Shown here piece after piece: positions 24,886 to 54,304 of a stretch of 64,000 nucleotides of DNA (its first letter is position 1; each line of letters opens with the position of its first letter). Below the pieces are notes generated by a model. It was given only the letters and a program-made list of their open reading frames with translations, had not been told where the DNA came from and searched no databases. Made by a program: the position numbers and the translations under genes. The stretch is taken from contig QPMI01000643.1 of the NCBI GenBank assembly GCA_004431415.1, positions 93,496 through 157,495 on the forward strand, written 5' to 3'. Source of the stretch: Cyanophora paradoxa CCMP329. Taxonomy: Eukaryota; Plantae; Glaucophyta.

Positions 24886-24980
24886 ACACATATGTATAAA
24901 CTTATTTAAATCCCTCGTTCATCTCGATCGCTTCGCGATCTCGATTCACTCAGGATTTAAATAAGTTTATACATATGTGT
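24886..24980. repeat. Terminal 95-nt hairpin of element A
   Basis: ACACATATGTATAAACTTATTTAAATCC (24886-24913) pairs perfectly with 24953-24980; interior is a symmetrical 18+3+18 nt with TC/TC mismatches around GATCGC-TTC-GCGATC. Confidence 0.95.
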
Positions 24981-25560: not shown

Positions 25561-25669
25561 TATGTTCTATAAAACAGAATAAATGAATTCAAGTGTGACA
25601 GGTAGTATTCAAATGATATTCAGTAAGAGATAGTTTTGTTTTTGAGAAAGTCAGTAAGAGGGGTGGAAT

Positions 25670-26140
25670 GTCTGTGACGCCTGTGACGGCTGTGACGCCT
25701 GTTTTCAGAAGTCTGTCATTTTTGAAAATTTTAAAAAGTTTGAAAGTAGGTGTCACAGGCGTCACAGGCGTCACACTCAATTAAATTAGGTGTCACAGCG
25801 AAATTGCAGACCATTTCCAGTAAGACAACTTCGCATTTTCAAAAAGGTTGATTAATGGATAGTGTTTTGTAGGTGTCAGAGGTGTCACAAGACGGATTTC
25901 AGTAAGACAAGAATATATTTTCGAAAATCTCAGTAAGAGAAAGAGATTCCATTGTTAATTGGGTGTGACGCCTGTGACGGCTGTGACGGCTGTTTTCAGA
26001 AGTCTGTAATTTTTGAAAATTTTAAAAAAAAGTTTGAAAGTAGGCGTCACAGGCGTCACAGGCGTCACAGTCAATTAAAGAGGCGTCACAGTCAATTAAA
26101 TAGGTGTCACACCCGATTATCTGACCATTTTCAGTAAGAC
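25670..26140. promoter_or_regulatory. Two iteron-like candidate origin blocks of element A
   Basis: (CTGTGACGC/G)x3 - AT-rich spacer - (GGCGTCACA)x3 at ~25670-25800 and ~25963-26110, flanked by CAGTAAG. Confidence 0.55.
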
Positions 26141-26621: not shown

Positions 26622-26904
26622 ACACATAGTAAAATGCGGAGTTTTAACCCTCGGCTTATCTTAATTGATTTTGTTGATATATCTCGTATATTCTATTTCA
26701 ATCAATCGATAATCTGTGTGTATCTTATCGAATATTCAATTATTTCGATTATTTTGTATTCTTTTCGATATTTTATCGTAAATTTCTCTTATTTTCCGAT
26801 TAGTCTTACTGAGTCTATCGATAATCTCTATATATTTCCGAATAATATAACTGAATCTCAATTAGATCTTGCCTCTGGTTAAAACTCCGCATTTTACTAT
26901 GTGT
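26622..26904. repeat. Terminal 283-nt fold-back hairpin of element B (mirror copy 55087-55369)
   Basis: ACACATAGTAAAATGCGGAGTTTTAACC (26622-26649) pairs perfectly with 26877-26904; the 227-nt interior pairs imperfectly throughout. Confidence 0.9.
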
Positions 26905-27156
26905 GATTGGTCTAAAAGTTAATTGATTTAATCGATATTATATTCATGTACTTTCTCGATTAAATTTATTTAAATTTAATTCATTTAATCGGAAACATAT
27001 CGCTTAACTCGATTAAGATCCATAAATGATTCATTTGTTTATATTAACAAATAGATCTCTTATTGAATCCAATCGTAATTATACATGAAACTTATATGTT
27101 ATTATCATGTTTTAATGAGTCTAAGGGGGGACCCTTAGGAATTTAATGAATAATTG

Positions 27157-27452
27157 GGTGTCACAGGTGTCACAGGTCCATCCCAAACTTTTGAAAATTC
27201 ACTCTTTATAGGAGAAACTTTGGGATAAACCTGTGACACCTGTGACACATACCATATTCAGTAAGGACCTCTTTTATAATGAAAAACTCAGTCATAATCT
27301 TATCTATGTATTTCTAATTAAATGAATAAATGATTTAATCGAGTGTCACAGGTGTCACAGGTCCATCCCAAACTTTTGGAAATTTACTCTTTATAGGAGA
27401 AACTTTGGGATAAACCTGTGACACCTGTGACACATACCATATTCAGTAAGGA
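27157..27452. promoter_or_regulatory. Two iteron-like candidate origin blocks in the TIR (mirror 54539-54834)
   Basis: GTGTCACAGGTGTCACAGGT-CCATCCCAAA...TTTGGGATAA-ACCTGTGACACCTGTGACAC then CAGTAAGG, at ~27158-27266 and ~27343-27452. Confidence 0.6.
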
Positions 27453-27974
27453 CCTCATATATTGTTAAAATCTCAGTGTTAGTTGGTGTAGTTGATTCAA
27501 AAAATGCATTTATACTCTGATTCATTGTTATTTCCTGTGAAATTTGAGTCAACTCAACCCACTTAGTCAACCCTTGCATTGAATTCGTAACAAAATCCAT
27601 ATACTATTACTACTTTTACGATTAATATGAGTCAACCTTGAGTCCACTTAAATATAAATATAATATAATAGGGGGAATCTAGGGGAGATGCTTAGAAACA
27701 TATGAATTATTGAGCCTATGAGACTTACATCGTCACGCTAGCCTCGTTGAGAGGATTCCGAATCTGTTTTTATCTTTGTGAGATGATGAGTTGGTGAAGA
27801 GATACATGCTTTTTAGTGTTTTGTATGGGAGTTTTCGATATGACGTCATCATGACGTTGCATATGTATATGATATATATGACACACGGGCGGACTCGGGA
27901 GATTATGACGATCACGGCGATGTGTTAATTGTCATATTGTTTATGTATATATATTTGGCGCAATCTGATTGGTG

Positions 27975-28610
27975 TGCTTGAAACCACATAATTCGTGCTT
28001 TAAACCACATAATTCGTGCTTTAAACCACATAATTCGTGCTTGAAATCACTTATTAAAAACTAATTCGTGCTTGAAATCACTAATTAAAAGATAATTCGT
28101 GCTTGAAATCACTTATTAAAAGATAATTCGTGCTTGAAATACTAATTGAAAGATAATTCGTGCTTGAAATCACTAATTAAAAGATAATTCGTGCTTGAAA
28201 TCACTTATTGAAAGATAATTCGTGCTTGAAATCACTAATTAAGAGATAATTCGTGCTTGAAATCACTAATTGAAAGATAATTCGTGCTTGAAATCACTTA
28301 TTAAGAGATAATTCGTGCTTGAAACCACTGATTAAAAGATAATTCGTGCCTAAAACCACTTATTAAAAGATAATTCGTGCTTGAAATCACTTATTGAAAG
28401 ATAATTCGTGCTTGAAATCACTAATTGATAGATAATTCGTGCTTGAAACCACTGATTAAAAGATAATTCGTGCCTGAAACCACTAATTAAAAAATAATTC
28501 GTGCTAAATGAAATCGATTACATGATATCGATTACATGAAATCGATTACGTACATGAAATCGATTGCATGAAATCGATTACATGAAATCGATTACATGAA
28601 ATCGATTTCC
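27975..28610 (+). repeat. Compound minisatellite: 21-bp x3, 31-bp x~15, 14-bp x~7
   Basis: Core TAATTCGTGCTTGAAATCAC about 18 times, then CATGAAATCGATTA repeats at 28508-28610. Confidence 0.92.
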
Positions 28611-28831
28611 ATAAAGAATAAAACATTTCGCCGAAGTTTCGCCGAAGTTTCGGTGTTTCGTTTCTCCGCATCTTCAAACGCTTGTATCTCATCACCAGAT
28701 AGTCAACTTGCAGCGTTCTGCATAGCGTTGTGAAGCGCTTGAGAAGATCTACACGTTGATGTGTATATCATATGCATATATGTATATCACACATACATAT
28801 ATTTGGAAAAAACGAGTTTTCGGCTATGAAA

Positions 28832-30217
28832 CTAGCTAGTTTTGGTCCTTTCTCTTAGTGTTCTTTGAGGTTTAGGGGCTGTATATGACTCCTTAGTAGT
28901 CTGAAAGTCATTATACCATCTCTGGCTATTCACTTCTGAAAGTTTCTGTGTCCCTGCTATAGTGAGCTTTTTGAGTTCCCTGCTAACTTTTCCAGCCTTC
29001 TCCTTCCTAGCCTCTATCAAAGGCTTATCTGGGACTTCATTAGCAGCTTCTATGCCTTCTCTCCTTATAGCAGCATCAACCCTAGCTTCCTCTTTAGCTT
29101 GCTCCAAGGCATCCACTGTAGGTGTTTCCAGATACTCAACTGCATTCACAGGCAACAGCTCATGGAATGCAAACCTGTTATCTATGATCTCTCCAGTGGG
29201 ACTCCTTAGCTTAAACTTAAAGCCTTCCCTACTATCAACTGTGTAAACCATCCTAGACCAATTGTTACCCTGTTTAGCAAAGGGGTTTTTCTCAACTTTC
29301 ACTCTAACAAACATGCCAGGCTGCATGGTATCAAGGTAAGCTATTGATTTCTTGAATCTTTCATCTTCTAATCCCACTATATACCTATAATGCTCCTCTG
29401 TAGTTTCGCCTGGCTTCATCTTAGTAGCTGAGTGAACTGTATTATTGTAATTATACTCAATATCACCTAACACATCAAAGAATCTAGCTGTGTTATTAGC
29501 TATGCAGTAGTTTGTGATCAGTCTCTTAATCTGCTTGTTAAAGGCTTCAATTCGACCTTGGCTTCTATGGTCAGCAGTTCCACTCACTTGGTGTTCTATG
29601 AATTTACTAGATAAATACTCCTGGAATATTCGATTTTGGAATTCACTCCCAGCATCTGATTGAACTTTTACTATGGGTCTTGCCACTCTCATTTCAAGCT
29701 GTTTAAATGCAGCTAATGTAGTGAGAGCTGATTTATCCCTTATAGGTATAATATACCCAGTTCTCAGTGTGGATTCCATTGCAGTCATAAAGGTATCATA
29801 GCCATTGTTTTGTTTCTTATAAGCTGGGAAAAAGAGCAAATCAATCACATAGGTATCAAGGGGCTGCCTAATTGGAACCATGGGATCTCTCTTCCTAGAT
29901 ATAGCTGGTGCATTGATCTGAACTACCTCTTGTTTTTTATAGAACTCTTGCAATTGCTTATAGGATTCATCAGGTAACTCAGCCCTCATAGCTTGAAGCC
30001 CTTTGTAACCAGTTCTCACATCATAGAATCTCTTTGCAATCTTGCTGGTTTCTTTCACTGCAATAGCAACTGGGATCTCTACTGGGACAAGCTCTTTCAT
30101 CTCTGATTTTTTGACAATTCGAGATTCCCCCTTTTCCTCCTTTGGAATTGTGATAGGCAGTAGGTTACCTTGCAGTTGCTCAGTGGTTCTCCTAACTATT
30201 CTTCCAGTTGCTGGCAT
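28832..30217 (-). CDS. Polinton-type retroviral-like (rve) DDE integrase
   Basis: YVIDLLFF, VQSDAGSEF, QGRIEAFNKQIK, YNNTVHSATKMKP; uninterrupted 461-aa ORF. Confidence 0.93.
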   Translation of the reverse strand: MPATGRIVRRTTEQLQGNLLPITIPKEEKGESRIVKKSEMKELVPVEIPVAIAVKETSKIAKRFYDVRTGYKGLQAMRAELPDESYKQLQEFYKKQEVVQINAPAISRKRDPMVPIRQPLDTYVIDLLFFPAYKKQNNGYDTFMTAMESTLRTGYIIPIRDKSALTTLAAFKQLEMRVARPIVKVQSDAGSEFQNRIFQEYLSSKFIEHQVSGTADHRSQGRIEAFNKQIKRLITNYCIANNTARFFDVLGDIEYNYNNTVHSATKMKPGETTEEHYRYIVGLEDERFKKSIAYLDTMQPGMFVRVKVEKNPFAKQGNNWSRMVYTVDSREGFKFKLRSPTGEIIDNRFAFHELLPVNAVEYLETPTVDALEQAKEEARVDAAIRREGIEAANEVPDKPLIEARKEKAGKVSRELKKLTIAGTQKLSEVNSQRWYNDFQTTKESYTAPKPQRTLRERTKTS

Positions 30218-30220
30218 CTC

Positions 30221-33200
30221 TTAATTAAAAGGAACAGAATTAATACCATCTGGTAAGATGTATCTCTTTGCATCAAAGCAGTTTAGGGCAACCCTTCTAC
30301 TCACAGTGTCTATTATTGTGTGATCTGCCCTTCTTTTCTGCTTTGCAGTCACAGTCTTGCTGATACCTGCAAATAAACACTGCTTAAAATCATTAAATTG
30401 GAGTTCCTCAGTTGAAGTCCCAGAGAGCTTACTCCTCTCAATCTCAGCAGTTCTGAAACTGTAAACTTTGGCTCTCAGACCCACATACTCCAATATAGCA
30501 GAACCTGGCATTTCATTTTTGTATTTACCTGGGGTCATTCTTGAATCACCTCCAAGGTCCAAAGAATAAGCAATATTCTCTATATCTTTTGCAATGGTCT
30601 TAGATTCAATATATAGACAGAAGGAGTCAGTATCATGGAATAGTAACTTTGCTTTTGTCCATTGGGACCTTACAGTATCATAGAAGAACTGGTAATTATG
30701 CAGTTTGGCTGCATCCAAAACATAAGCCCCAATTGCAACAGGCTTATCTAGTTTCACATGCTTTGTGTAAAACTCAAAGGCAACTGCTTTTTCGTTTATG
30801 GGGCTTGTTGATTTCACCAATGGGGAGGCTGCATATTTCATAAATAGTTTCTCACTGTTTGCAATCTTAACCACAGATCTACCTCTGCAAGATTCAATGC
30901 ATTTCCCATAGATTGAATTATTCATGAGCTTGTAGAAATCAGCCTCGAATTTATTCACTGCTTTCCTTCTCATGTCAGTATTCAGCTCAATATAGGGTTT
31001 CATTACAGGAGCCACAGTAAATGATAGGACCCTGTGAACTTTCTTTAATTTCACCCCTTTGTCCAACAGATATTGCAGAAGAGGCTCAGAAATCACATAG
31101 TTTGTCACAGAACCAAAGGTTGCAGTTAGCTTAGGGGTCTTATCAAGCTCTTCTCCTGAAAGATCTAATAGGCTCTTTTGATATTGTGATAATTCGGCAT
31201 AATCTATTATTTTCTTGTTAATAATTAGGGGAAATCACTGTGATCTAGAAACAGCCTAATTGGGTAATCCAGATCAACTTCTAGGAAACTGGATCTGTTA
31301 TCTTGTGGGTTGAATTCGGTCTCCCATCTAAAATCACCAACTGGAATTGGCTGACTCAAACAGTAGCCATACAAGTTGTTAGCATCAAACAGCATAATGT
31401 GGGAGTTTTCACCATCAGCCTCAGCATACCTACAAGGCATTGTTGCAAAGCCACCCCTGATTCCCCTCTCAACAAATTCGTATTGCTCTACATCACTTAT
31501 AAGCTCTATTTTTGCCTTGGTGGTCCTTAACATAGCATCCCAAGATAACCCAGGGGCAGATACATAATGAACTGGGTCAAGTCCATATACTGAGTGTGAA
31601 AGCCTTCTAAAAGCCTGGAATTTGTTCATTAACTCATCTACATCAGCAGCTCCAAAATCCATGAAATTGCTTGCATCAATGAACTTGTAAAGACCCCATT
31701 GCAATGACAGGTATTGATCAAAGTTTTTCGAAAGGATTTCGATTCGCTTTTTATCACCCATGCCTGCTATTTTTCTGAAAATGAATGTCCCACAGTCATC
31801 CATTTGGTCAACAACCACTGCTACTTTTGTTTGCTTTGAGATTCTCCTATGGAGATTGCAGTTTCTGCATGCAGGTGCAATGTAATTACCTGTGTGGTGA
31901 TCATGATCCCTGCATTTGAAGTTCTCCTTAGTGAACCTCTCACTGCAAAGGTAACATTGTTTGGTAGCTCTGTAAATTGCTTTCTGCTCATCTGTGAGTT
32001 CATTCATAGGAATATTGGTGAACAGGAAATCGATCAGCTCTCTTGCTTTGATTTCCAAGCATTCAAACAGACCTCCCATTGGATCCTGACCCTCAAATCG
32101 AAAATCTTGAACATCTTCCCCAGTGACTACTCTAAGGTTCACTGCTGAGACTTCCCGCTTGGATTTCGATGCATCAATGGGGATGCTTCTATGTTCAATC
32201 TTGCAGTAAACCACAACAGGAAGCCACACAGTTTTCCTGAGGTTTTTCAGTCCAAACTCTATGGTGGTCTCAGGTTTAGGGGTGATTCCCTTTGAGAGTC
32301 TCCAATCAATGCATCTGTTTGAGTCCACATGAGCAGTGAGTTTAGCCTCAGACCTGAATCGAGATAAGCATGTATCACAGTAGTGTAACTTTTGATCCTT
32401 GGTTTTATCAAGGGCAACTCTGAGAAGTCTTGAAAGGGACATGATTGTAATATAGTGACCATTCCCTTCATCATCATGAATGAGCATGAGATTAATCTTT
32501 TGCTTTCTGCCTGGGTTGCTGGATTGATGCAGTGGATATATAACATCTCCATCCATTCCAAAGATGTTTATGCTAATGCCTGCATTTTGAGCTTCGAATT
32601 TATCAATGATTTCAGCATCACAAGGAACAGGGAATGGGATATTGTCGAAATTGAGAGCCAAAGGATTGTATGTGGTTGGTGAGTATTTCCATTTGCGATA
32701 TTGTGTAAGCTCACTTCTCTTGTGGGAATTTACATCTTTCCTATGGATCCATGCCAAAATGGCATTTTCAAAGCAAGAATCATCAATATTTCGAATATTC
32801 ACTGTGGCTCTCTTGGCTGCAATTGATTCTGGTGTTTTAACATAGCAGCCACCAGTTGGGGCATAACTCATAATAGCAACTCTTAGCATTTCGATTCTCT
32901 CCAATCGATAGCTATCAACAACATTCATCTGTTCCTGACACATTTGGGCTGCTTTATTCAGCTCAGTTCGAATATTTCTCGATTTGGTTAATACAAAATA
33001 ATCGCTGTAAATGTATTTCGATATCCAAACCTGTGGATTGCTGACTTTTACGAACTTGCAGATAAACGACAAGCGAACTTTGATTGCCCTGAATTGATCC
33101 AGACTATCTCTTAAACGTTTTGGTAGAGAGGTTGCAATTCTATCTAAATATTCAATCACATCTACCACAACTTCCCTTCTGGCTCTGTATGTGAGCCAGC

Positions 33201-33465
33201 GATATAATTCATTCATGGCTGTTCCATCTTCTGCCTCTGGTTCTATTTGCCTCAGGCGATCGAGTTCATCAAGAGTCTCAACTTTGTCATAGAGGTTATT
33301 GGCTTTTCTGGTTAATTTTGCTAAAGTGGGTCTGCCCCTTGAAATAAATCCGATTTCCCGGTCATATTCAGCCTCTGTGATTTCATGGGCTGCATACAGT
33401 GTTCCCAGTAATCCCATAAGTTCCCATTTCTTCTCTCTAATGAGTCTGTTGCTAATTCGGGGCAT
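30221..33465 (-). CDS. Protein-primed family B DNA polymerase (one frameshift at 31228-31231)
   Basis: OTU-like region (NIDDSCF...GHY), C2H2 finger, endonuclease VII-like insert (CYLC...RDHDH..G.Y...AC..CN), motifs DANNLYG, KLMNNSIYGK, DTDS, GLRAKVY. Confidence 0.92.
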
Positions 33466-33574
33466 AGTTCCTAACTTGTTCCTACTAAAAGGGGAGGTTT
33501 TAAATGGGGAATTCTGAACACAAAATTTGATGAAAACTACTTAAAGAAATATCTTCTATATATATAAAAGGACA

Positions 33575-34390
33575 ATGGCAGAGAAGAAATCGTATTGCCT
33601 GGAAAAGCTCAAAGCGGCTTTAATGTTGCTTTGTGGATCTGATAACTTCAATGATTATGTTGCTCTTGGAAGTAACAGGAAACCGCTCCCTCTTTGGGCA
33701 AAGCTTGCAAAATATGGATTAAGTGACTATGACCTGCCTCCAGAGTCTGAGCATTGCGCCTGTGATCATCCAATTAAAGAGCAATGCTATATTCTGCATG
33801 TTAATAAAAAGATTGTGGTCATTGTTGGGAATTGCTGCATTTTACGATTTATTCCAAAGGGTGCCAGAGGTCAAGATATATGTGAAAGATGTGGAGATCG
33901 GCATAAAAACCGAAAGGATAATTTCTGTAATAAGTGCAGAATCGCTTTAAAGCAAGAAGAACTGGAAAGAAAAAGAGAACTTGAAAAACAAGAGGAAGCT
34001 CGAAAGAGGCAGCTTGAATTAGAAGAAAGAGAGCGAAAACAGAGAGAATTAGAACAAGAAAGAGCAAGGAATAAACATGCAGTTAATCTTTTCCTGATTT
34101 GGTGCAACCAATTTATTCCGAAAATGGATAATCTTCGCAGAGATGATATAGAGAGGTTCAGAGAGGGCAGATCTGCATTGATTGAAATGTATGCAGGACT
34201 CAGTACAACAAATACATTGGTTGCTGGGTTTCAGGTGCCATATCTCAAAAAGGATATTGCAAAAGGACTAGATTGCAGATGGAATAAGGACAAGAAAACA
34301 TGGGAGACCTTGGAAATCGAACCATTTGTAGCATTGCTAGGTAAGCATTTCAAACTAATGTATATTGAGCGATTTGGACAAAGAGGTTAG
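33575..34390 (+). CDS. Cys-rich, coiled-coil viral protein with C-terminal DUF5710-like motif
   Basis: CACDHPIK..C, VGNCCI, CxxC pairs, VPYLKKDIAKGLDCRWNKDKKTW. Confidence 0.7.
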   Translation: MAEKKSYCLEKLKAALMLLCGSDNFNDYVALGSNRKPLPLWAKLAKYGLSDYDLPPESEHCACDHPIKEQCYILHVNKKIVVIVGNCCILRFIPKGARGQDICERCGDRHKNRKDNFCNKCRIALKQEELERKRELEKQEEARKRQLELEERERKQRELEQERARNKHAVNLFLIWCNQFIPKMDNLRRDDIERFREGRSALIEMYAGLSTTNTLVAGFQVPYLKKDIAKGLDCRWNKDKKTWETLEIEPFVALLGKHFKLMYIERFGQRG

Positions 34391-34446
34391 AGAACAAAAA
34401 ATGATTTAAAGAATTCTCTATATATATTAAGAGAGACAGAGGAAAA

Positions 34447-34701
34447 ATGCCACTCAGTGAAGCCCAGAAGAGAGCTATGAAGAGATATCAGCAAACTGAA
34501 AAAGGTAAGGCTAAAATCAAAAAGTTTAACGAAAAAATAGCCACACAGCTAAGAGATCTATATAACAATGATGATACTTATAGAGCCATGAAAATAGCCA
34601 GTTCATGTCAGCGAAAGTATGCAGCCAATGCAGTCTGCTTTGTCAAGTATTTGTATGATGTCCCTTACTCAAATCGAGGGAGAAAATCGAAACATGTCTA
34701 A
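34447..34701 (+). CDS. Small basic viral protein (possible DNA binding)
   Basis: MPLSEAQKRAMKRYQQ; preceded by the shared TTAAAG...TATATA motif. Confidence 0.65.
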   Translation: MPLSEAQKRAMKRYQQTEKGKAKIKKFNEKIATQLRDLYNNDDTYRAMKIASSCQRKYAANAVCFVKYLYDVPYSNRGRKSKHV

Positions 34702-34912
34702 ATTATTTTTCCCAGCATATTACTAGGCTGGGATATGCTGTTTATTCGCTGAAATACTACTTTATCGTTTTTGTATCTGAACCACTCGATATATCATGTG
34801 GATAAATTTCGTAGGGATACTTTCTCGATTTCCAACAAAAAATGATTGGGGGACCCAAAACTACTTAAAGAAAAATCTTCTATATATATAAAAGGGACCC
34901 CGATCGCTGAAA

Positions 34913-37239
34913 ATGAACGCCAAACAGACTAAATCGCTCAAATCGCTCGCTAACTGGCTCAGATCTGATGAGGATCTAGCCAAAAACATGATTATCCCAG
35001 TGAAACCTGACAGCAAAGACCCTGTTTTCAAGCATAAGGGAGGTGCTTGGTCCTGGGAAAAGTATGAGGAAGCGCTGGCAACTAATCAGTATGTATCTTG
35101 GGGCATTCTGCTCTCAGACAACATGATGGTTATTGACTTTGATGATGAGGAGGACTTTGAGAAATTCCGAGATATGTTTCCTGATGACTTTGATGCCAAT
35201 CAGCCCATGGCAAAAACTAAAAAAGGCTATCATGTCTACTTCAAACGACCTGAGGAGTTCACTAAACTCAAAATTACCGATAAGGCTCCAGGCTTTAAAG
35301 GCTTTGAAAAGGTTGACCTGAAAACAATCACTGGAACTGGAACTTCTGGATTAATTAATGTTTGTCCCAGTGTCAACAAGACCTGGGTAATTGCTCCATG
35401 GGATGATACCTGTGATTTCAATGAGCCTACTGATGAGTTTAAAAAGTGGATTGCAGAGAACTATATCTATAAGAGTGAGTATACTGCTAGTGCTAGCTCA
35501 AATGATGAACTGGAAAAGAGTATTCTTAAAGAGCTGGTGGATATGGGCTTTATGCATCCCAATATAATCTCTAAAACTGAACTTGGCTTTAGCTTTGATG
35601 CTGCTAATAAGGGACTCAATTGCCCATGCTGCAATGGTTCCCATGAATCGAATAACTGGTATGTTATGAAAGCCAAAGGAGAAGATAAAAAGTATATTGT
35701 GTCCAGCTACAGTGGCAATTGCAAAAAACGATTTATCTTCATTGGAATGCAATCTGATATCTTCAATCTCATTGATAAATCCGCTGGCTCTGGAGGCGCT
35801 CATTATGATGTCAGTCTTGTGTGCAAAGAGGTCCTACAACACACTTGGAGATACTCCAAAAAGTCATGGTTCAAACTCAATACTGATACTGGGATTTGGG
35901 AGCATGATGACACAAACCAAAAGATTTACCTAGACATTAGTTGCCTTGTTGTCCCTCAATACCTTGGCAGGGCTGTGCATTATAGTCAAAGAGCTTTGAA
36001 GGATGAAGAGAATAGAACAGCTTTCGAAGAGAAATCGAAAACATTAATTTCTATTGCCAAAAATCTTAAACAATCAGGATATCGCAAATCCCTTCTGACT
36101 GATCTGCTCCCTCTGCTAAATGATGATGAGTTTTACGAGAAGATTGATACAGTTCCATATGTAATTGGATTCGATAATGGTGTATTTGATCTGACAACTA
36201 TGACTTTCAGAAAGGGTAAACTGGAAGACATGGTGAGCAAGAGTGTGGGTTATGATTATACTGAGAATGTAGACCCCAAGAAAGTGGAGCATCTCAATCA
36301 GATTTATAGAGAGATTGTAGATGATCCAGCAGAGCGAAACTATCTTCTGGCATCTATTGCAATTGCTTTGAGTGGATCAACAAAATCACAGAAGTTCTAC
36401 ATGTGGACTGGTGCTGGTGCTAATGGTAAATCACTTGTTCAGGAATACTGCAAACAGATATCTGGGGCTTATTACAGCCCTCTCGAAATATCCTATTGGA
36501 CCAAACCTAAGAAGAACTCATCAGATGCTACCCCTGAACTTGCCAAACTCCTGGGAAAGCGACTTGTATTCAGTAATGAGGCTGAAGATGGTGATAAACT
36601 GCAAATCTCCAAAATTAAGGAGGTCACAGGTGGAAATGAAATGACTGTGAGAGCCTTGTTCAAAGATCCAGTTATCCTTACTCCAATGTTTCAAGTCTAC
36701 ATTACAACCAATGACAATTTGACTATAAACAAACCAGACTTTGCAATTCAAAGAAGGCTTTCATACCAGAGATTTAACAATATTTTCAGAGAGAAGCCAG
36801 AAGCTGGTCAAAAGAAAGCTGACCCAACTCTGTTCACACTTCTACACAATGATGATGAGTATAAGATGGCTCACATGAAGATATTACTGGATATGTGGAA
36901 GAACAAAGAGGTTGAAGAGATCTTAAGAAATCCCCTCAATCGATTATTGAACAAGGGATAAACTTTATAGCTGAAAATGATAAGATTGGTGAATGGCTTA
37001 GGGATAATTTCGAAGTAACCCACAATGCAAACGACTTTGTTTCGAGTGATACCATTTACAAATCATACAGAAGTGTCGATGATAAAGTTGAATGTGTTTC
37101 TGTGATGAAGAGAGTAAGGGAAATCTTCAATGTGAAATCAGAGGTTAAAAGAATTCAGGGAACCAGAGCAAGGGGCTACATTGGACTTCGAAAGATAACA
37201 AGGGTTCAAGAAGACAATGGAGAGGATGTCGAATATTAA
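34913..37239 (+). CDS. AEP primase-polymerase fused to D5-like SF3 helicase (one frameshift at 36932-36935)
   Basis: VIDFDD and KTKKGYHVYF, CPCC...H Zn site, IGFDNGVFDL, Walker A GAGANGKS, Walker B VFSNE, ITTN; the shifted frame continues ENDKIGEWLRDNF...RGYIGLR to stop 37237-37239. Confidence 0.92.
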
Positions 37240-37280
37240 ACAAAACGATTTATGATTGAAATGTATATGTAATTTTATAG

Positions 37281-37391
37281 CCTTACTGGAAATGGTGTTG
37301 TTCACAGGTGTCACAGGTCCATCCCATCTAGGGGGCTATAAAACGAAAAATGACCAGGGGACGATAAAAACCTGTGAACACCTGTGACACC
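37281..37391. promoter_or_regulatory. Internal iteron-like candidate origin directly downstream of the helicase
   Basis: CCTTACTG...TTCACAGGTGTCACAGGTCCATCCCA...AAAACCTGTGAACACCTGTGACAC, same architecture as the TIR blocks. Confidence 0.65.
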
Positions 37392-37458
37392 TATCGAAAA
37401 AGACCAAAATTTGACAAGAATACTTAAGGCTTACTTGATTGTGTATAGTGAAGACAAA

Positions 37459-37680
37459 ATGGCAAAGGCTCTTGAAGAGATGACCATGACTGAGTTAGAT
37501 AAATGCATTCAACATGGAGATATTGGGGCATATATCGAAATGTCAGAAAGATTGATAGGTTACAATTTGTATGCAGCAAAACCAAAGAGGAATAGATCAG
37601 TGAATATTCACATTACAGTCTCAGTGTCTGAGAATGCAAACAAAAAACAACAAAAGCATATTTACAAAAGTTATCTGTGA
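37459..37680 (+). CDS. Small hypothetical viral protein
   Basis: ATG at 37459 downstream of AAAATTTGA...ACTTAAGG motif. Confidence 0.5.
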   Translation: MAKALEEMTMTELDKCIQHGDIGAYIEMSERLIGYNLYAAKPKRNRSVNIHITVSVSENANKKQQKHIYKSYL

Positions 37681-38013
37681 CTTGATTGCAAGTATAAAGC
37701 CAATTCCTTTGTATATAGTTTTATAGCTGCCTCAGTAGCATACTGAGACCGCTTTTTCTCGATTATCTTATAGACCTGGGGGTCCATTGCTACTTTCAGT
37801 TGGCAAATAATATTTAATCGGTCTCCCTCTGGGTCTCTGCTCCTCTTTTTGGGCTTTTCTGCGATAATAGGATGCCAGGGCTTGTTGTTTCTTATACTCT
37901 CTATATGCTGGGTCATCTCTATATCGTTTCTGCATTGCCAGAATGTGTCTTATAGACCCCTCAGTAACAGGTTCATCACTGGTAAACTCGATTAAACTAA
38001 TAGTGTCCTCCAT
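37671..38013 (-). CDS. Small basic AT-hook protein (probable frameshift at 37778-37782)
   Basis: YYRRKAQKEEQRPRGRP; the two overlapping ORFs join at a G/C run. Confidence 0.55.
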
Positions 38014-39025
38014 TTATATTCCCAGAGAAAACGTTTTCTGCTGGCAGAGAACTTCTCCTTGGATACTCCTGTTGCTCATATGTATACTCTGTGGGGTCTG
38101 CTGGCATTGACTCCACAGAAACTGTTGATCTCCTTCTCTCTCTTGCTTCTGAGGCATTATCCTCAGTATCTGACATCTCAAACTCTATTGTTGTGTCACA
38201 GCATCCACTGTGGCAATTGCTCACCACATGCAGACTGAGCATCTCAATAAACTTTCGTATTATATCCATGTCTCTAATAAAACAGAGAAAATTAAAGCCA
38301 AACTCGTCTTTTATATACTGTTGGGCTACTCCCTTTTCTACTTCAGCTTTGGTGGCACCAGGTTCAATAGTTCCCTTCTGGGTCTTTGTTTTCATTTCAT
38401 CTACTGCCTGCTCATCGATTTGGTTCTCTTTCTTAGCAATAAACTGTTTATCTGGGACACCAGTAATTCCCATTTTATAAACTTCCTTTCGAAGCATCTC
38501 CTTGAGCTTGGCTCTCTCTTTCTTCTCAGTAACATACTGCTCCAAGGCACTTGATTTAGCTTCCAAGTCTTTGAGTTTAGCAGTCATCTCATCCCATTGA
38601 GCCTTGGGAATTCGATGTATATTTTGAGTGGGAGCAGTTTTATATGTGACTTCACCAGCCATAGACTGGATTACCTTGTCTGATTCCTTACTAAGACCTT
38701 CACCTTTGCGAGCCAGTGAAAGATCTTGCAAGCCTAGACCTTTATCATCAGCAGCACCAATAATTCGCCTGGCACCCTCAGCAACAGCTTTCATTTTTGA
38801 GGCTTCAGGTGAGATGTTGAGTTGGTCACTGGTTGAAGCCTGTGGGGCTTTGTCATCGACTGATTCCTCATAGGCAGCATTAAGAGGGTCCTCTTCTTGC
38901 TGTGAGGGCTTCACCTCATTCATACCATTGAATTTCATTGGTTCAGTATTAATGGATCCATTGTTTCCACCACCTGAATAGCCAACAGCCCCAGCTGGGA
39001 TCCCTATCTTTCGTTTGGGAGGCAT
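37997..39025 (-). CDS. Hypothetical charged/coiled-coil viral protein
   Basis: 342-aa ORF in AT-rich DNA, co-oriented with the ATPase and MCP; no recognised motif. Confidence 0.7.
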   Translation of the reverse strand: MPPKRKIGIPAGAVGYSGGGNNGSINTEPMKFNGMNEVKPSQQEEDPLNAAYEESVDDKAPQASTSDQLNISPEASKMKAVAEGARRIIGAADDKGLGLQDLSLARKGEGLSKESDKVIQSMAGEVTYKTAPTQNIHRIPKAQWDEMTAKLKDLEAKSSALEQYVTEKKERAKLKEMLRKEVYKMGITGVPDKQFIAKKENQIDEQAVDEMKTKTQKGTIEPGATKAEVEKGVAQQYIKDEFGFNFLCFIRDMDIIRKFIEMLSLHVVSNCHSGCCDTTIEFEMSDTEDNASEARERRRSTVSVESMPADPTEYTYEQQEYPRRSSLPAENVFSGNINGGHY

Positions 39026-39053
39026 TGTATCTTTATTAGAATGAGAGATAATT

Positions 39054-39836
39054 TTATAAACCGCGTTTATATCGCATCAATTTATTGCTATGGACTTGGC
39101 TTTTCACTTCTTTAGGGGCTTCCTCTTTCTCTGGTGGTTTCAGTTCATCTTCTTTCTTCTTGGGCTTCCTGTGGAAGCGAGGAAAATCGAAATCTCCAAC
39201 TAAATCGGCTTTATCAACATAGTAGCCCACATTATACTTGAAAGATGTATAAACAAGGAATTGATATGAGTGGACATACTCTTCAAACAGTTGATAGAAA
39301 TCTTCTTTGCGAGGAAAAGTCGAAAACTCCTCTGCAAATGCTTCCAGCTCTTTTTGATTGCTTGCACAAACCATAATTACTATATCACTATTGCAGCGAA
39401 TAACACTTGCGACCTTTCTTAATTTTTGGGAAATAGTTATAATTGATATATTGACATGTCTGCCACGAACATAAAGCATTCCCACTGTTTTATCTCGACT
39501 GAGATCCAGCTGGTCATTTTCTATCATATCCTCTAAAATCACCAGCATATGGTTAAGTTCTTCTCCTTTCTCCCTTTTTGCCTCTCTTTCTTTTATAATT
39601 TTCGACATGTATTGGGGATCCCATGCACCCAGTTGAACAGTAGCAGCTTTGTCCCAGAAATGTGAGAATGAGGTAGCGGATATAATAAGGGTTGTATCAA
39701 TCTTTTTGGCATCATGCAGCTGTTTCAAATAATATTTTACGGCTTCAGTTTTTCCGCATCCACTTTTACCTAGTATGAGTAGTCTGAAAGGGGGTTCTAT
39801 CATTTCACCAGCATTAAATTCTTCCAGATCTTGCAT
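39054..39836 (-). CDS. A32-like (FtsK/HerA) genome packaging ATPase
   Basis: ILGKSGCGKT, LVILEDM, RGRHVNISIITISQ, IRCN. Confidence 0.93.
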   Translation of the reverse strand: MQDLEEFNAGEMIEPPFRLLILGKSGCGKTEAVKYYLKQLHDAKKIDTTLIISATSFSHFWDKAATVQLGAWDPQYMSKIIKEREAKREKGEELNHMLVILEDMIENDQLDLSRDKTVGMLYVRGRHVNISIITISQKLRKVASVIRCNSDIVIMVCASNQKELEAFAEEFSTFPRKEDFYQLFEEYVHSYQFLVYTSFKYNVGYYVDKADLVGDFDFPRFHRKPKKKEDELKPPEKEEAPKEVKSQVHSNKLMRYKRGL

Positions 39837-39901
39837 TGTTGTATATCTTTCTAAATAAGTACAGATAAAAATAATGCAGAGAGACTGAATATCGTCACAA
39901 T

Positions 39902-41271
39902 CTACAAATTTATACGACGAAGCCCATCCTTGTCCAAAATTATATAGGAATGCATGAGAGCGCGAACATTAACATCGATTACCTTATCTGAAGGCATGTA
40001 CAGGGTGAGGAATGAAGAGGAGGAATTTGTTAAATCAACATAACCAGACTGGGCAATATTTCGAATTGCCTTCTCTCCATCAATGCAGAAACTTAAACCT
40101 GAAAGGACATAGCGATCAGCAACCTTATCCATGTTAGAGCATTTGAAGGCATCAGCAATTAGCTCAGCACCTTTGAGTAGGGAAATTGGCTCAGTGGCAT
40201 AAAGTCGCTGTCCATTAATTTCAACAGTGAAAGTAATATCTTTGGAGTTGGCATAGGTCTTAAGAACACTGTGGGAGCCAGTGGATTTATCAACAGTTGC
40301 ATTATCACGAACTGAAACAAGCAGAGCATAAACAAGACCTGAGATTTGAGAGAGGTTAATTCGATTGGGTTGGGCATTGCCCTTGGCAGGGAAAGCACTA
40401 GCATCTACAAATCCAATATCAAGGGAGGGAATAGCCATGCCAGTAGTCTTTACTTTTTCAATTACAGTAGCGAAAAGCTCATCAGAAACATTAATAGCAT
40501 GCATGTAAAGGCGAGGAGAAGTAATAGAAATGACAGGGGTTGTTGCACCAAGAGTAAAGTCTGTGATGTTTTGACCAACATTTGCCAGAACAGTTTCAGC
40601 AGGGGCAGTTCCAAGACCGTCATCTTTTGAATAATCTACATCATCTGCTGCAACAGTAAGACCACGACCACCATAGGAAGTTTCAACATAACCCTTTCCA
40701 GCATCCTTAAACCAAACAGTAACAACCATTTCACCAGATAAAGCACCAAGGGGAAGGTAGTGATTTAGCCAAGGCACAGGAATTTCAACGAAAAATGAGC
40801 CACCAAGGCGGTTGGTTCCATGAGCAGGAATGCCATGAACCATGCCCATTGATCGCTTCTTTTTAGCTAGTTGATCCTCCGAATAATAGACCAGGGGAAA
40901 TGAGCAAGGAAATCAGATGGAATATGGTAGGTGTAAGATCCATAGGTAATTTCAAGTCGCTGAACTAAAGCACCAACTGGGCGAGTGTATCCATTGCGAA
41001 CTAGGTCAGTATCACCAGCAAAAGTGATGGCTGGAAGGTCGAAAGCAAGTTCGAGTTTTCCACAGAAATTGTAGCGAGGTAGCTTGAAGGAAATGCGATT
41101 TCCAACATTATTCTCAAAAGTATTGCTGGGATTCACAACAACTAGAACTGGCTTAGACTTGGATTCGAGACCAAGCATAAGGGAGTTATCCAGGAAAAAG
41201 GCTTTCGCCTCCTCTGGGGTTGTTAGGGCTTCTTTCAGCGAAAGTCTTTGAAGAGTGGAAGTGATATCCAT
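39902..41271 (-). CDS. Double jelly-roll major capsid protein (one frameshift at 40894-40897)
   Basis: About 456 aa after joining; ISFKLPR...LELAFDLP...LVQRLEITYG...YLPLGAL pattern; lies between ATPase and pentons; nearly identical N-terminus in element A. Confidence 0.8.
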
Positions 41272-41324
41272 TATATTCTCTTTTATTATACTGCAACATA
41301 AAAAATCTACCAATGATCCTTAAT

Positions 41325-42334
41325 TTATGCGAAGCTTGTAATAACTGGATAGGAAGGGTGAAGCTGCGACATTCTCATCTTAAAGTATTCATAAACTGGG
41401 TCCCCAGCTGGCTCATCACCATAGCGAATTTCAAAGGTCAGATGAACAGGTTGACCCTCAAAATCAATTGGTTCATTTACAGCATTAACAATATCAACCG
41501 AGAAAGTGGATAATCCAACCTTTTTGTTATAGTATTTATAAAGTGGATGAGCCTCTGTTGAATTGTAAACAACATGCTCACCATAATCTTTGTCAGGAAC
41601 CACTATTTTATGAAAGTAACCAGTCAGAAGACCATCCCCACATTGAACCAGATCACCCAGCTCCTTTACTCTCACAAACAAAACACTGTCCCTGGTCTTC
41701 TCAGGCTCAAAAGAAGATATAATGCCATTCACTCGACCATCAGTAAAGATTCCATCAGTGAGAGCATCATAAACTTGGGATTTGATTGGGGAATTCCCAT
41801 ATCTTCCAGGATCAAGACCAAGCAGTCTAGCTGAACTCAATAGCTTTTGGATTGTTTGTTGGCTTGGGTTTACAGCAAGTGAGAAAGCCAGGTAAAAAGG
41901 CACTGCCGAGTGGAATATAATTCGTTTCAGTGACTCATCCCATTTGCAGCGAATGGATGGTTGGGGAGTTCTGCCAATGAATTTTGAGTTGATTACATTC
42001 ACCAGCTGTTGGTGGCTTTGGATGGGGGTCTCGCGATTTACCATGAATTGTTTCCATTGTTCAAAATCAGCAGCTGGGCGAGTTGTTGGAATTCCTGAGC
42101 TTCCAGCTCCTGGAGTTTGTTCCGAATAATAAATACTAAATGTGTTATCAACTGTGACATCTCCTGCTTTGGTTTCACCACTCACCATAGGGATGCTGTT
42201 ATAAAATTCGGCTGAGACCAGTCTCACAGCCCTCACATTCTCATAACTACTGGGAGTCTAGCCACAAAGCTTGATGTGGGACCATCACCAGAGATTGTAT
42301 TAAATGAGCTAACCTCGATGTAATCCACAGGCAT
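41325..42334 (-). CDS. Minor capsid/penton protein 1 (one frameshift at 42252-42254)
   Basis: Homologue of the intact ORF 56278-57288; VRLVSAEFYNS and IDFEGQPVHLTFEI single-jelly-roll-type ends. Confidence 0.7.
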
Positions 42335-42363
42335 TCTTCTTTTATCTATATTTATATATTAAA

Positions 42364-43296
42364 ATGAACCGGCTCGTTAATATTGATAGCAGGGATAGAA
42401 GCCAAGGACAAAATGAAAACTCTTACAGGGTCACCCTCACAACTCCAGTAGAGAGACCAAGGGAATGCAGGGTTCTATATGCAGAGATTCCAAACAGCAT
42501 CTATAACAGTGTGGGAACTGATCATCTAACAGTTCAGTTTAATTACCAAGATGGTTCATATAACCAAGTGATCACACAACAAGTGTATCCCCTTCCCAGT
42601 GGCTACATCAATCAGGGTCATTTTGGGGTAACACACCCTTATAATTATGGGCTGAACTATTCAAGCTTCCAAACCATTGCAGGCAAAACAGTAGCTTTTG
42701 AGTTCAAGATATTCTATAACCCAACTACCTATAAAGTGGAGTTTTACAGTAACCATGAGTTTCGTTTTATTGCAAGCAACCAGAGAATAGGGAAGCTTTT
42801 GGGTGTAAGTTCTACTGAATACACCAATGGGTATTATAGCACTCCTCCTGTTGGTGGATCTCCCTATCGACCTGAGAACCTTTTAAAGTATGATGGCAAA
42901 CCTATTACACCTGATCACCCAGCATGGGGAATCACCTTCTCAGGACCCAGACTCTCCTCTAAGCCCTTGCAATATTATTTTGACAGCAGGAAGATGTCTG
43001 ATATGAATGCTGAGCAGTATCTGTACATGCATATTAAAGAGCTGTCCCCCTTTGCCAGCAGACACAATATAATTCCAAAATCGCAACCACAAAATCAGGG
43101 AGCTATCCTTAGATTGCAATTGAGTAAGGATATAGGGGGCTATGTTTACCATAGTGGTGAGCATGCAGAATTTATTCAAATCAATGACAGAAACCTGGTG
43201 ATAAGGGAACTCACAGTTGAATTTAAAGATTACTTTGGTGAACTGATTGATATGAATGGAATCGATAATTCTTTTCAGTTGGAGTTTATCGAATAA
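42364..43296 (+). CDS. Minor capsid/penton protein 2
   Basis: VNIDSRDR...AEIPNSIYN...LTVEFKDYFGELIDMNGIDNSFQLEF pattern. Confidence 0.72.
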   Translation: MNRLVNIDSRDRSQGQNENSYRVTLTTPVERPRECRVLYAEIPNSIYNSVGTDHLTVQFNYQDGSYNQVITQQVYPLPSGYINQGHFGVTHPYNYGLNYSSFQTIAGKTVAFEFKIFYNPTTYKVEFYSNHEFRFIASNQRIGKLLGVSSTEYTNGYYSTPPVGGSPYRPENLLKYDGKPITPDHPAWGITFSGPRLSSKPLQYYFDSRKMSDMNAEQYLYMHIKELSPFASRHNIIPKSQPQNQGAILRLQLSKDIGGYVYHSGEHAEFIQINDRNLVIRELTVEFKDYFGELIDMNGIDNSFQLEFIE

Positions 43297-44841
43297 AGGC
43301 ACCTGTGAAATCAACTCTCATTGTGGGAGCATTCACATACACAAGGGGATAAATGCGAATATATTTAATTCTGAGAGAAAAACCTATGTAAAAAGCATCC
43401 TTGATGCTGAGAGGGAACCCACTCAATAGAGCCATATCACCTGAGTTGTGAGCATTGTTAATGTTCTCACAGACATATATTTTGTTCTGCCCATCTGATC
43501 GAATAAAAGACCAGTTGATCCCATCAGTGGATGTTGCCACATTGAAAATCTTAATAAAAGCATTGGTGTCCCCTGATCCATAGGCAATCACAGAAGAGAG
43601 TTCAAAAGTATATGGGAAAGCAACTTGAAGGTATTCAGTGGGGTTTCCCATATCTGCTCAGGAGCATAGGCTCCAGCTTCCCAGCCAAATGCTGAAGGTC
43701 TAGCCATGAAAGGCTCTTTACCAGTCACAGAGGATGAGGCAGTGAAGGCATCATCTGCAAGCTGATACCAATTAGCATCCAAAGGTGGTGATGTAGTGAG
43801 AGTGGATGAAATGTAAGCCTTTGAAGGGTTCTTTAGTTCATAGTTTGCTACTAGTAGGCTGCAAAGCTTATTGATCATATCATTGTTTGCTGCAATGTAG
43901 GTTTCTGTGAAAGAAAGCATATCTGGGATTTTAGAAGTGTCATCAAGGGAGCTAACTATATGGTTTGGAAGAGGCACTGATAGCCTATAGTATCTCCCAT
44001 AATCCTGATCATAGTTGTAGGGTAACAACTCCTCCATCTTATCAAGGGCAGAAAGCTCACTTGCAGCCATGAGCATGTTAATCAATGGGCTTCCATCTGT
44101 TGAGGCAATCCATGAGAGAATGCCCCAGCTGTTGACAGTCTCATAAGCATAACCCACATAATCAGACTCTAAATGTGGGTCCACCTCTCCACAAGAGATA
44201 CTTATTACTATAATGTCATCATCATCACTGTAAATCTTCTTTGCATGGCTGTAACCACACACACTGGGATTATTGTTTCCCGAAATGGCACCATCAATGA
44301 GACAGACATATACTCCCCGATTGAAATCAACAATGCTTACAGGAGAGAAATATGTAGGAGCAGCAGAAGTAGCCCTAGCAGCAATCTTACAAGGCATAAA
44401 GTTGTAATTGTTGTCATTTGTGATAAATATTGGTTTCATATTCTGAGTATCAAAGGATGTAATCACAATGTCCTTTAGGGAATCCTGTATTAGTGATTCA
44501 CCAGTAACTGAATTGATTGCAGTCTCCAAGGGTCCCACATCATACTTTGTATTAAAAAGGGCATTTTCGATTATATTTCGAGGATTTGCGAAAATCAAGG
44601 GCAGTTGAGTTAGGTAAATATTGTGTAAATCGTTCGCTGTCAGTTTAGGTTCACCTGGTCTATCAGGATGCCTTATATTCAAACCTATTGCAATGATCCC
44701 ACCAGTGGAAGTTCCACTCACAAGATCCACAAGATCGATTATTCTCCTGCCAGTTCGATTTTCGATTTCTTTGAGCAGCCTGGTTATGATAATGCCCCTT
44801 GCACCCCCGCCAGAAAGACTTAAAACGACCTTGAGAGGCAT
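43286..44841 (-). CDS. Patatin-like phospholipase fused to an F5/8 type C (discoidin) domain (one frameshift near 43659)
   Basis: LSLSGGGARG, GTSTG, ATSAAPTYF, IDGA; then FTASS...W...EYLQV...STDGINW...YIRIYP...MRVDFTG. Confidence 0.85.
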
Positions 44842-44884
44842 CTTTTACTTATCAGGAATTTTATAAATCCATATAGTAAAAGCC

Positions 44885-51631: not shown

Positions 51632-51671
51632 ATATTCGTTTATTTTTCTATCCTTCTTAGTAAAAGAAGCA

Positions 51672-52517
51672 ATGGGTGAATATAATCGAGTTCAACTGCC
51701 TATATATTCCCTTGGATCCCCTGCAATGCATTTTCGCCAGCATGAAGTAAATGATGAGGTTCGTGGTTTAGAATCCACAGAGAGACCCAATTCCAATGGC
51801 AACTCCTTTGATAAAAATTCGATTATTCGAGTTAAAGAGCTGAGAGCTGATAAGAATTCTGGTGTGGTTAAAACAACTCGACTTCTTGTCACCAATGCTA
51901 ACTTCTTCCAGCCTACAAATGGAGGTCCTGATGCTTACAGTGTTGCCCTGAAAACCCTAGATTTCGACAAGAATACTGCTGCTGTTACTGTGAGATCAGG
52001 AGGAGCATTTATTGGGGGTGGTTGCAGAGTGTCAGGTCAACTCTCATCCTCCATTTCGTATAATGATGTCCCAGATACTCTAGAGCAAAATGTGGAAGAC
52101 CCCCAACGAATTCGATTATATACTCCTGTCGCACAGCAGCCATTAATTCAATTTTACATTGGATATACTGTTACTCTTGAAAACTCGGAATTAATTGAAG
52201 GAACCAAAAGAGTACTGAGAGGTCTTGCGATTCCATCTGCAATGCTTTCCCTTTGTAGAGCCAACAACAATCAAGTAGGTCATAAATACTATTTCAATGT
52301 TCAGGGATATAATCATTTCGGTTATGGCTACTGTGTTTATAATAATAATTTCACCTTTGACTTGTTTGTTACAGATATTGGGTTATATACTATAACTCTT
52401 ATCGGTTTGAGAACAGATATAGCCGCTGTATCAGCTCTTAGAGGTGTAACTCCTGATACTCTTTCAGTTACAGGGTTTTACATGGAGCCAGATGTAATTG
52501 ATGACCCAACCCCATAA
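51672..52517 (+). CDS. Hypothetical virion/fibre-associated protein, paralogue 1
   Basis: Shares GL.STE...ELR.DKN.G.VKTT.LLVTNANF...SGGA.IG.G.RV.G with the next ORF. Confidence 0.7.
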   Translation: MGEYNRVQLPIYSLGSPAMHFRQHEVNDEVRGLESTERPNSNGNSFDKNSIIRVKELRADKNSGVVKTTRLLVTNANFFQPTNGGPDAYSVALKTLDFDKNTAAVTVRSGGAFIGGGCRVSGQLSSSISYNDVPDTLEQNVEDPQRIRLYTPVAQQPLIQFYIGYTVTLENSELIEGTKRVLRGLAIPSAMLSLCRANNNQVGHKYYFNVQGYNHFGYGYCVYNNNFTFDLFVTDIGLYTITLIGLRTDIAAVSALRGVTPDTLSVTGFYMEPDVIDDPTP

Positions 52518-52540
52518 AAGATATATCCCTTTAATGTAAA

Positions 52541-53374: not shown

Positions 53375-53396
53375 GAATATTGGTTATATATAGAGT

Positions 53397-53669
53397 ATGG
53401 ATAGTAAAACAAAAAAGTTTATTGATGCTGCTATGACAGTTCATGGTAAAGATAAATTCGATTACAGTGAGACACATTACATCAAAGCTCAAGAGAAAGT
53501 ATCTGTTAGATGTTTGCAGTGTAATAAGGTGATCCTTACCTATCCCTTTAATCATGTGAAGGGATCAGGTTGCAGGGAATGCAACAAAAAACATTCTCAG
53601 GCTTACAGGAAAAGGGCTTCTTCATCAATCACAGTGGAATATAGGGATGTTTGCATTAGGTTCGATTAG
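53397..53669 (+). CDS. DUF723-like zinc-finger protein
   Basis: FIDAAMTVHGKDKFDYS...Y...C..C...P.NHVKGSGCREC. Confidence 0.65.
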   Translation: MDSKTKKFIDAAMTVHGKDKFDYSETHYIKAQEKVSVRCLQCNKVILTYPFNHVKGSGCRECNKKHSQAYRKRASSSITVEYRDVCIRFD

Positions 53670-53698
53670 GTTTAATTAATTTTTATAAGGTATTCTTA

Positions 53699-54097: not shown

Positions 54098-54147
54098 TGG
54101 GTTTCTATAATGAATTTCTAAAGGATTCCTTTGTTTTCTAACAATAA

Positions 54148-54212
54148 CATTGATAAGCTACTGTAACAAAAAGATATAATATATCCTTTCACTACAGTAG
54201 CTTTATACAATG
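54148..54212 (+). terminator. Hairpin downstream of the last rightward gene (candidate transcript 3' end signal)
   Basis: AAGCTACTGTA (54155-54165) pairs with TACAGTAGCTT (54193-54203), extendable to CATTG/CAATG. Confidence 0.4.
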
Positions 54213-54304
54213 ATTATTTTCCGGATTCCGGACATTTTTTACGATAGAATTCTATTGTAAGTAATTGGAATAATGTTCGATTTCATTACAGTAAAACTCA
54301 ACAT

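Follow-up and report, generated by a model that had tools for sequence, protein, structure and literature searches.

Candidate iteron-type replication origins behind the primase-helicase gene and in the terminal inverted repeats of a putative Polinton-like virus in a Cyanophora paradoxa contig

The locus considered here is a set of short-repeat blocks in element B, a putative Polinton-like virus (PLV) within a 64,000-nucleotide stretch of the Cyanophora paradoxa CCMP329 assembly (contig QPMI01000643.1, positions 93,496 to 157,495; hereafter the window), and the closest described systems are phage P4, the staphylococcal pathogenicity islands (SaPIs) with other phage-inducible chromosomal islands (PICIs), plasmid pRN1 and what has been proposed for PLVs themselves. 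In P4 the crr region, as annotated in NC_001609, consists of two 120-bp direct repeats with a period of 180 that end 46 bp behind the alpha gene, each repeat holding a doublet of type 1 iterons with a 9-bp period together with inverted copies, and a second cluster lies at ori, 4.7 kb away. The SaPI ori lies downstream of rep, has at least two opposed iterons per side and is bound by a winged helix, as described for PriRep5 (PMC9371898; 10.64898/2026.10.17.759575). For pRN1 the essential origin of ORF904 is an inverted repeat of about 100 bp with a 21-nt stem and a 58-nt loop, 54 bp behind the gene (PMC4234260), and the pRN1 and P4 alpha tails have been aligned with Rfx (PMC2777425). In PLVs inverted repeats have been proposed as the origin for the primase-helicase within an "end module" hypothesis, and Gezel-14T has a repeat of more than 300 bp common to its TIR (terminal inverted repeat) and the DNA behind the end module (PMC11296320). 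In that account neither iteron units nor a geometry is defined, and its supplement contains neither "iteron" nor "origin". The replication start of most PLVs is stated to be unknown in 10.64898/2026.07.28.741278, the accessible parts of PMC12220804, PMC10120064 and 10.1101/2025.10.09.676808 define no origin, and in the literature searched, which took in few subscription journals, no description of iterons in PLV TIRs was found. TIR origins of a eukaryotic virus were proposed in general terms before (PMC11296320), without units or a defined sequence, and what this locus adds are crr-like pairs embedded in TIRs, a polarity flip between nested elements and an apparently compensatory variant.

Element B (26622..55369, 28,748 bp) is flanked by a 6-bp duplication, TTCATA, at 26616-26621 and 55370-55375, and its 1065-bp left TIR (26622..27686, plus strand) is identical to the right one (54305..55369, minus strand). 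TIRs with a 5-6-bp target-site duplication characterise PLVs, as do the A32 ATPase, integrase, protein-primed family B polymerase (pPolB) and primase-helicase genes that B contains, and because of this gene set B appears to be a PLV of a microbial eukaryote. On balance we favour the reading that five blocks in B are binding sites for the tail of its own helicase and that replication starts there, and the blocks as read by this enzyme are the likely candidate for B's replication start. In the left TIR the 9-bp unit GTGTCACAG occurs exactly at 27158, 27167, 27343 and 27352, and inverted at 27231, 27240, 27416 and 27425, which gives a first block (27158..27248, plus strand; GTGTCACAG twice, a 55-bp spacer, CTGTGACAC twice, CAGTAAG at 27259) and a second that starts 185 bp after it (27343..27433, plus strand, CAGTAAG at 27444). 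The two sit as a crr-like pair in 142-bp direct repeats that are 93% alike with a period of 185, and the right TIR has the mirror set of units (54558-54833; blocks 54558-54648 and 54743-54833). The original prediction had described inverted 9-bp repeats twice per TIR, and the 2+2 exact units bear this out with a spacer of 55 bp rather than about 50.

The internal block (37281..37391, plus strand), foreseen at these positions as a further copy, is present in a less exact form, reading TGTTCACAG and GTGTCACAG, a 55-bp spacer, then CTGTGAACA and CTGTGACAC. Its arms are again 2+2, with a single exact unit in each (37308 and 37382) and one variant (TGTTCACAG at 37299-37307, inverted at 37372), and CAGTAAG, which follows each TIR block, is here on the opposite side (minus strand, 37282). 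The block starts 41 bp, and its first unit 59 bp, 3' of the stop at 37239, so the anticipated origin position 3' of the rep gene holds. The first TIR block folds as a 20-bp stem (z -9.3), with z -2.85 for the internal block. Chance as the source of the repeat was considered and rejected, 23 exact 9-mers being counted in 24886-57800 against 0.2 in base shuffles (n=100) and inverted double-doublets in 0 of 20 shuffles; an assembly artefact was likewise ruled out, the region being covered in 4/4 sequencing runs. CAGTAAG, often 10-25 bp after an iteron-like unit, is possibly the site of a second protein, and it also occurs six times in the left end of element A (25621-26138), the relative of B described below, and once inside B's terminal palindrome (26805, 55180).

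The main frame of the primase-helicase gene (34913..36961, plus strand) begins with a Prim-Pol domain (PF09250) and continues by Pfam into D5_N and an SF3 ATPase (DUF5906), and its final 99 residues, a C-terminal winged helix of RFX-type fold (36940..37239, plus strand), lie in another frame in the window. Since the C-run near 36931 is one base longer in contigs from 4/4 sequencing runs (76-100% of depth), the gene of this helicase family is continuous and ends at 37239; other copies in the host were viewed through short-read contigs. The placing of the block 40 bp after the helicase stop is accordingly right in its distance and not in its stop, which in the window closes the piece in the other frame while the helicase frame itself ends at 36961. 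The tail is homologous to those of the nearest helicases, and with 12 homologs it is modelled as a winged helix at a pLDDT (predicted local distance difference test) of 85, as against an unusable 46 from the single sequence. The fold assignment comes from Foldseek, for which the DNA-binding domains of RFX5 (E 8.5e-5) and RFX1 (E 4.2e-4) are the only 2 matches at E<=0.001, and from a weak profile match to RFX1 (E 0.016). The nearest helicases are eukaryotic-virus-type proteins (E 1e-161 to 1e-57; P0011, 41% identical, at E 1e-161), and in a tree of 190 de-duplicated cores from 340 the core belongs to an eight-member clade (support 0.97). Phage matches are no better than about 1e-12 to 1e-14, for which reason capture in recent times from a phage or bacterial satellite is rejected; the enzyme appears to be of eukaryotic-virus stock, and the idea of a captured helicase is not supported.

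Set against P4, B has a comparable D5-like SF3 helicase with a C-terminal winged helix (25% over 193 aa) and a comparable build of the repeats, a TIR module of 142 bp with a period of 185 versus 120 bp with a period of 180, plus a remote single block. The first crr iteron, the octamer TGTTCACA, equals the variant unit on both arms of B's internal block, a likeness noticed post hoc. B differs in having a Prim-Pol where P4 has a Toprim-type primase (PMC4234260), in a reversed arrangement with the double repeat in the TIRs and the single block behind the gene, and in being a linear eukaryotic virus with an integrase and pPolB. With the SaPIs and PICIs it shares an SF3 helicase (self-loading in SaPI) with a winged-helix tail, as seen from Pfam D5_N and DUF5906 and from the fold model, along with opposed iterons directly 3' of the gene and element-specific words, whereas the SaPI ori extends over some 300 bp, its 6-12 iterons accompanied by a centre that is clearly AT-rich, and B has 2+2 units around a 55-bp spacer and four extra copies at its ends. 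The order Prim-Pol, SF3, winged helix is that of pRN1, whose inverted repeat of about 100 bp some 55 bp behind the gene has the geometry of B's single block; pRN1 is in contrast a circular archaeal plasmid with a single-copy stem-loop lacking iterons, while B is a linear TIR element with tandem units. B stands outside the SaPI, P4 and pRN1 replicon classes, for each of which AT-rich centre, primase type or genome form fails, and yet would seem to work like them, and because the P4 crr build and the pRN1 geometry match, multi-site origins of B's kind appear to have precedent. Unlike the end modules of PMC11296320, B's helicase lies 8 kb inside, beside pPolB and the rve integrase. The Halocafeteria virophages and PLVs (10.64898/2026.07.28.741278) are similar in their palindromes next to the target-site duplication, in some having pPolB and D5 together and in their nested elements, and differ in that hairpin priming is proposed for them and that the accessible text mentions no internal or TIR iterons.

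A layout of this kind recurs next to helicase genes in prokaryotes and phages. Going from block to gene with the pattern GTCACA-doublet / 28-58 bp / inverted doublet, 25 viral loci and 1 more (26) were found, with a primase or helicase gene adjoining the block in 13/26: a VapE or AAA_25 helicase ends at the block in 9, a PHROG primase is found at 2 more, and at 2 a Prim-Pol/D5_N gene begins right after it (the profile scan covered 26/47 candidate frames from 20 viral loci). In GTDB 59 loci match this pattern and 0 the strict one, and primase/helicase-type families are carried by 19/50 frames ending at the block (D5_N 4, VapE 1, AAA_25 6, DUF3631 7, CHC2 primase finger 1) and by 0/32 frames starting near it; DUF3631 is counted partly on our assumption that it is of this type, 1/2 tested having matched primase-helicase PHROGs. 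Going from gene to block, the sample being 26 unselected D5_N genes in 20/151 genomes of one bacterial phylum, gene ends have the strict inverted double-doublet in 10/26 and a looser one in 14/26, against 5/81 and 6/81 of in-gene control windows (p 2e-4 and 1e-6, values that overstate independence, the loci being partly related). These bacterial doublets are mostly of period 9, each with its own word. The two phages with a Prim-Pol/D5_N gene right after the block, on actinophage-like contigs (L099/L086 and L108/L098), have B's exact unit in this block and again in another about 36 kb away, and AT-rich phage contigs (L085, L088-L090, L092, L103) have an intergenic GTCACA block with no helicase gene adjoining.

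For eukaryotic viruses, nearly everything that came out of five scans for relatives of the helicase or ATPase was a giant-virus core gene, with two PLV contigs in all, and a capsid-based scan for further PLV contigs found none. At 176 distinct D5-like loci, nearly all of giant-virus core type, a strict block was seen at 1 and a loose one at 2 (1/154 in a previous tally), the control being 3/1693 other gene ends. L305, a 16-kb PLV with D5, GIY-YIG, A32 and capsid-like genes and no pPolB, has GGGCCGTCA twice, a spacer and the inverted unit three times, 17 bp behind the D5 stop, and no other array of this sort occurs in the 5.4 Mb of giant-virus and PLV loci examined. Its sister L306, with structural proteins 50-64% identical, has pPolB in place of the helicase. 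An association of the motif with D5 genes in other PLVs, where the original prediction had looked for it, comes down to this one pair, and giant-virus core D5 genes lack the block (1/176). The predicted iteron-type origin with a winged-helix reader is strengthened by the RFX-type fold, the bacterial and GTDB gene-end association, L305 and the P4 crr. Elsewhere in the pair, L305 has GGCAACTGT three times at 15347-15375 and L306 has two different doublets in its TIR (1-115), with no inverted partners.

The same comparisons bear on whether the blocks might instead be transcription operators, or sites for the integrase, the packaging ATPase or a host RFX-like factor. Proteins commonly bind at inverted repeats in TIRs, a small open reading frame (37459) comes after the internal block, and the unit presumably resembles an RFX half-site; yet the layout follows helicase 3' ends and not starts (0/32), and no block is found in L306, which has the packaging and capsid genes too. 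What the regions upstream of 33575, 34447, 34913 and 37459 have in common is another motif (ACTTAA(A)G with TATATA), and the block is at none of the other 18 gene starts inspected, on which two grounds a promoter role was rejected, and a regulatory or packaging function as a whole appears very improbable. ACTTAA(A)G, in most cases with a run of TATATA after it, looks promoter-like and stands before divergently read replication-side genes, and a similar motif is found ahead of L305's helicase (L305 1-406).

Element-specific iterons were also part of the original prediction, and the units do differ among A, B, a sister helicase family and L305. Element A, in which B is nested, has two blocks (25672..26070, plus strand, at 25672-25776 and 25963-26070) with GCGTCACAG three times, arms pointing outwards and spacers 76-81% AT, and single units lie about every 72 bp at 25298, 25370, 25441 and 25513, so the variant unit of opposite polarity claimed for A is there. 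Since B's unit is nearly palindromic (TGT-C/G-ACA), a change of the central base is nearly enough for this polarity. In host contigs a second helicase family is found at about equal depth, its winged helix about 85% alike, with about 50 differences per 330-360 bases of winged helix and downstream DNA, and these contigs continue into TGTGACAGG as left arm and CCTGTCACA as right arm; the central base is changed on both arms, with symmetry kept and A's polarity. By sequence this both-arm swap looks to be a compensatory change, the variant being read from contig pieces and loose ends rather than a full sequence.

Quite how the internal and TIR copies came to resemble each other bears on a further alternative, in which the internal block is a neutral scar, a TIR piece copied when a mobile helicase moved into or out of the TIR as modelled in PMC11296320, with the TIR blocks serving otherwise. 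The internal copy is indeed the more degenerate, a mosaic of features from both TIR arms, a contig joining TIR flank and internal-type arm is found in 3/4 runs, and the shared repeat of Gezel-14T (PMC11296320) gives a parallel. In B, though, the sharing is limited to about 110 bp, exactly the iteron arms with their 55-bp spacing (the spacers match only in the first 11 bases), blocks behind the gene are met again from bacteria to L305, and both arms change together in the sister family, and a scar has accordingly little to recommend it as the explanation. The opposite course, an origin copied from the gene into the termini, had been suggested earlier; the copying may have gone either way, the TIR copies being more regular and the TIR spacer of B nearer to L305's post-helicase spacer than B's internal one is (likeness of the TIR spacer to L305 p ~0.013-0.05, to A 0.009-0.07, a weak signal uncorrected for 28 comparisons).

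Beyond the relatedness of the sampled bacterial loci and the piecemeal sister-family sequence, a number of results weigh against origin blocks read by the helicase. An AT-rich centre was not found, TIR spacers being 65% AT (surroundings about 66%) and the internal spacer 55%, and a winged-helix profile missed the P4 alpha tail by sequence. No recognised helicase gene adjoins the block at 13/26 viral pattern loci (including L101, an unscanned mirror of L097) or ends there at 40/59 prokaryotic ones, and the block is absent from 175/176 eukaryotic-virus D5 loci, nearly all giant-virus core genes. PLV support for the link of D5 and block is one pair, L305 and L306; the L306 contig has no such array, its 123-bp TIR being possibly cut by contig ends, and the visible right end of L305 has an imperfect hairpin without the L305 iteron. 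Blocks also present in the TIR are seen for A and B alone, and A's helicase is outside the window. At four-fold sites the strand skew of plus-strand genes does not switch at the internal block (p 0.91, 0.65), and a minus-strand AT difference (p 0.013) comes from the capsid gene and is uninformative.

For B it is established that the blocks exist, that they stand 3' of the helicase gene as well as in each TIR, in what order the helicase domains come, and that the layout recurs behind such genes elsewhere. From these we infer sequence-specific binding, self-loading, priming by the Prim-Pol and a role for the TIR pairs, in a scheme where helicase winged helices would bind the doublets on both arms, two helicase rings would load head to head with melting of the spacer, and the Prim-Pol domain would prime DNA synthesis as in the P4, SaPI and pRN1 replicons. 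The TIR pairs would either play the part of crr, a further iteron cluster at a distance, or themselves be the working origins, 0.5-0.8 kb from each terminus, and the ends may be completed by pPolB or by terminal palindromes. Such palindromes or imperfect hairpins are present in B (26622..26904, with 28-bp arms, and the same at 55087-55369; z -9.6), at the left end of A (24886..24980; z -12) and in L305 (16045-16176; z -13), while none is visible in the pPolB-only L306 (z -1.4), and terminal palindromes have been linked to non-pPolB replication genes (10.64898/2026.07.28.741278).

A second initiation route beside protein priming is plausible in B, and the same observations also agree with a helicase that is loaded for a protein-primed fork. 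In the latter case the blocks would bind helicase, those in the TIRs serving only as auxiliary origins for loading ahead of the pPolB fork, with all synthesis from the termini. B does retain an integrase and a pPolB of Polinton type in which palm motifs are present, 4/5 blocks lie 0.5-0.8 kb inside the ends, and the termini start ACACAT, which we take to be compatible with slide-back priming. But the same layout stands behind the helicase in replicons that lack pPolB (L305, bacteria), the helicase retains its Prim-Pol domain, and the internal copy, 10.6 kb from the nearest end, has been kept, with an apparently compensatory change, so that loading as the sole function is unlikely. With origins at the blocks, because the unit is near-palindromic one central change per arm would give a new, oppositely read unit, and co-resident elements would gain separate specificities. 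It is possible, if doubtful, that these PLVs replicate from P4-like multipartite iteron origins in their TIRs, where the element's primase-helicase starts replication, terminal hairpins complete it and protein priming is dispensable, and that co-resident or nested elements stay separate replicons by flipping the central iteron base together with the winged helix, like plasmid incompatibility groups. The locus offers a candidate origin of 91 bp, a 99-residue domain that may read it and, in B, A, the sister family and L305, naturally occurring variants of specificity, and if the proposal is true PLV replication would be tied to the P4/SaPI/pRN1 scheme and there would be a sequence handle on the proposed replacement of pPolB by primase-helicases.

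By base composition of the 64-kb window the host flank reaches 78% GC, and the AT-rich island at about 24.9-57.8 kb consists of two nested elements, B inside its relative A. The left end of A is at 24886, and beyond B its body continues from 55376, where its genes are 76-87% like those of B. The insertion site of B is a discoidin (F5/8) gene of A (26616-26621, 55370-57790), and A is cut again at about 57790 by a GC-rich, retroelement-like insertion within its capsid gene. Inside B the minus strand carries the rve integrase (28832..30217, a weak Pfam match) and, split between two frames, the family B polymerase of Polinton type (30221..33465), which has an endonuclease VII insert and whose palm motifs (31225-33465) seem intact; no pairwise similarity was found between this pPolB and that of L306. 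The exonuclease motifs of B's pPolB look altered and shortened relative to the Polinton consensus. Also on the minus strand are the A32 packaging ATPase (39054..39836) and a frameshifted gene (39902..41271, 56-65% identical to P0163) that from its size and gene context is probably the major capsid protein, which in PLVs is of double jelly-roll type, with no Pfam or PHROG match and one eukaryotic homolog. A patatin-like phospholipase (43588-44841), a fibre-like protein of 2248 aa with 36-bp repeats (44885-51631) and an AdoMet decarboxylase-like gene (53699-54097) complete the features noted. The polymerase, helicase and capsid genes each break at a run of four C (about 31240, 36931 and 40900), which looks like long-read error, with decay of this copy as the alternative, reads having been compared only at the helicase site. 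Just inside the left TIR, and not at the right end, B has an array of about 16-20 copies of a 31-bp unit (27956-28605), and outside both elements the stretch 8000-24880, intermediate in GC and with frames like Ulp1 protease and RNase H, is probably made up of other mobile elements.

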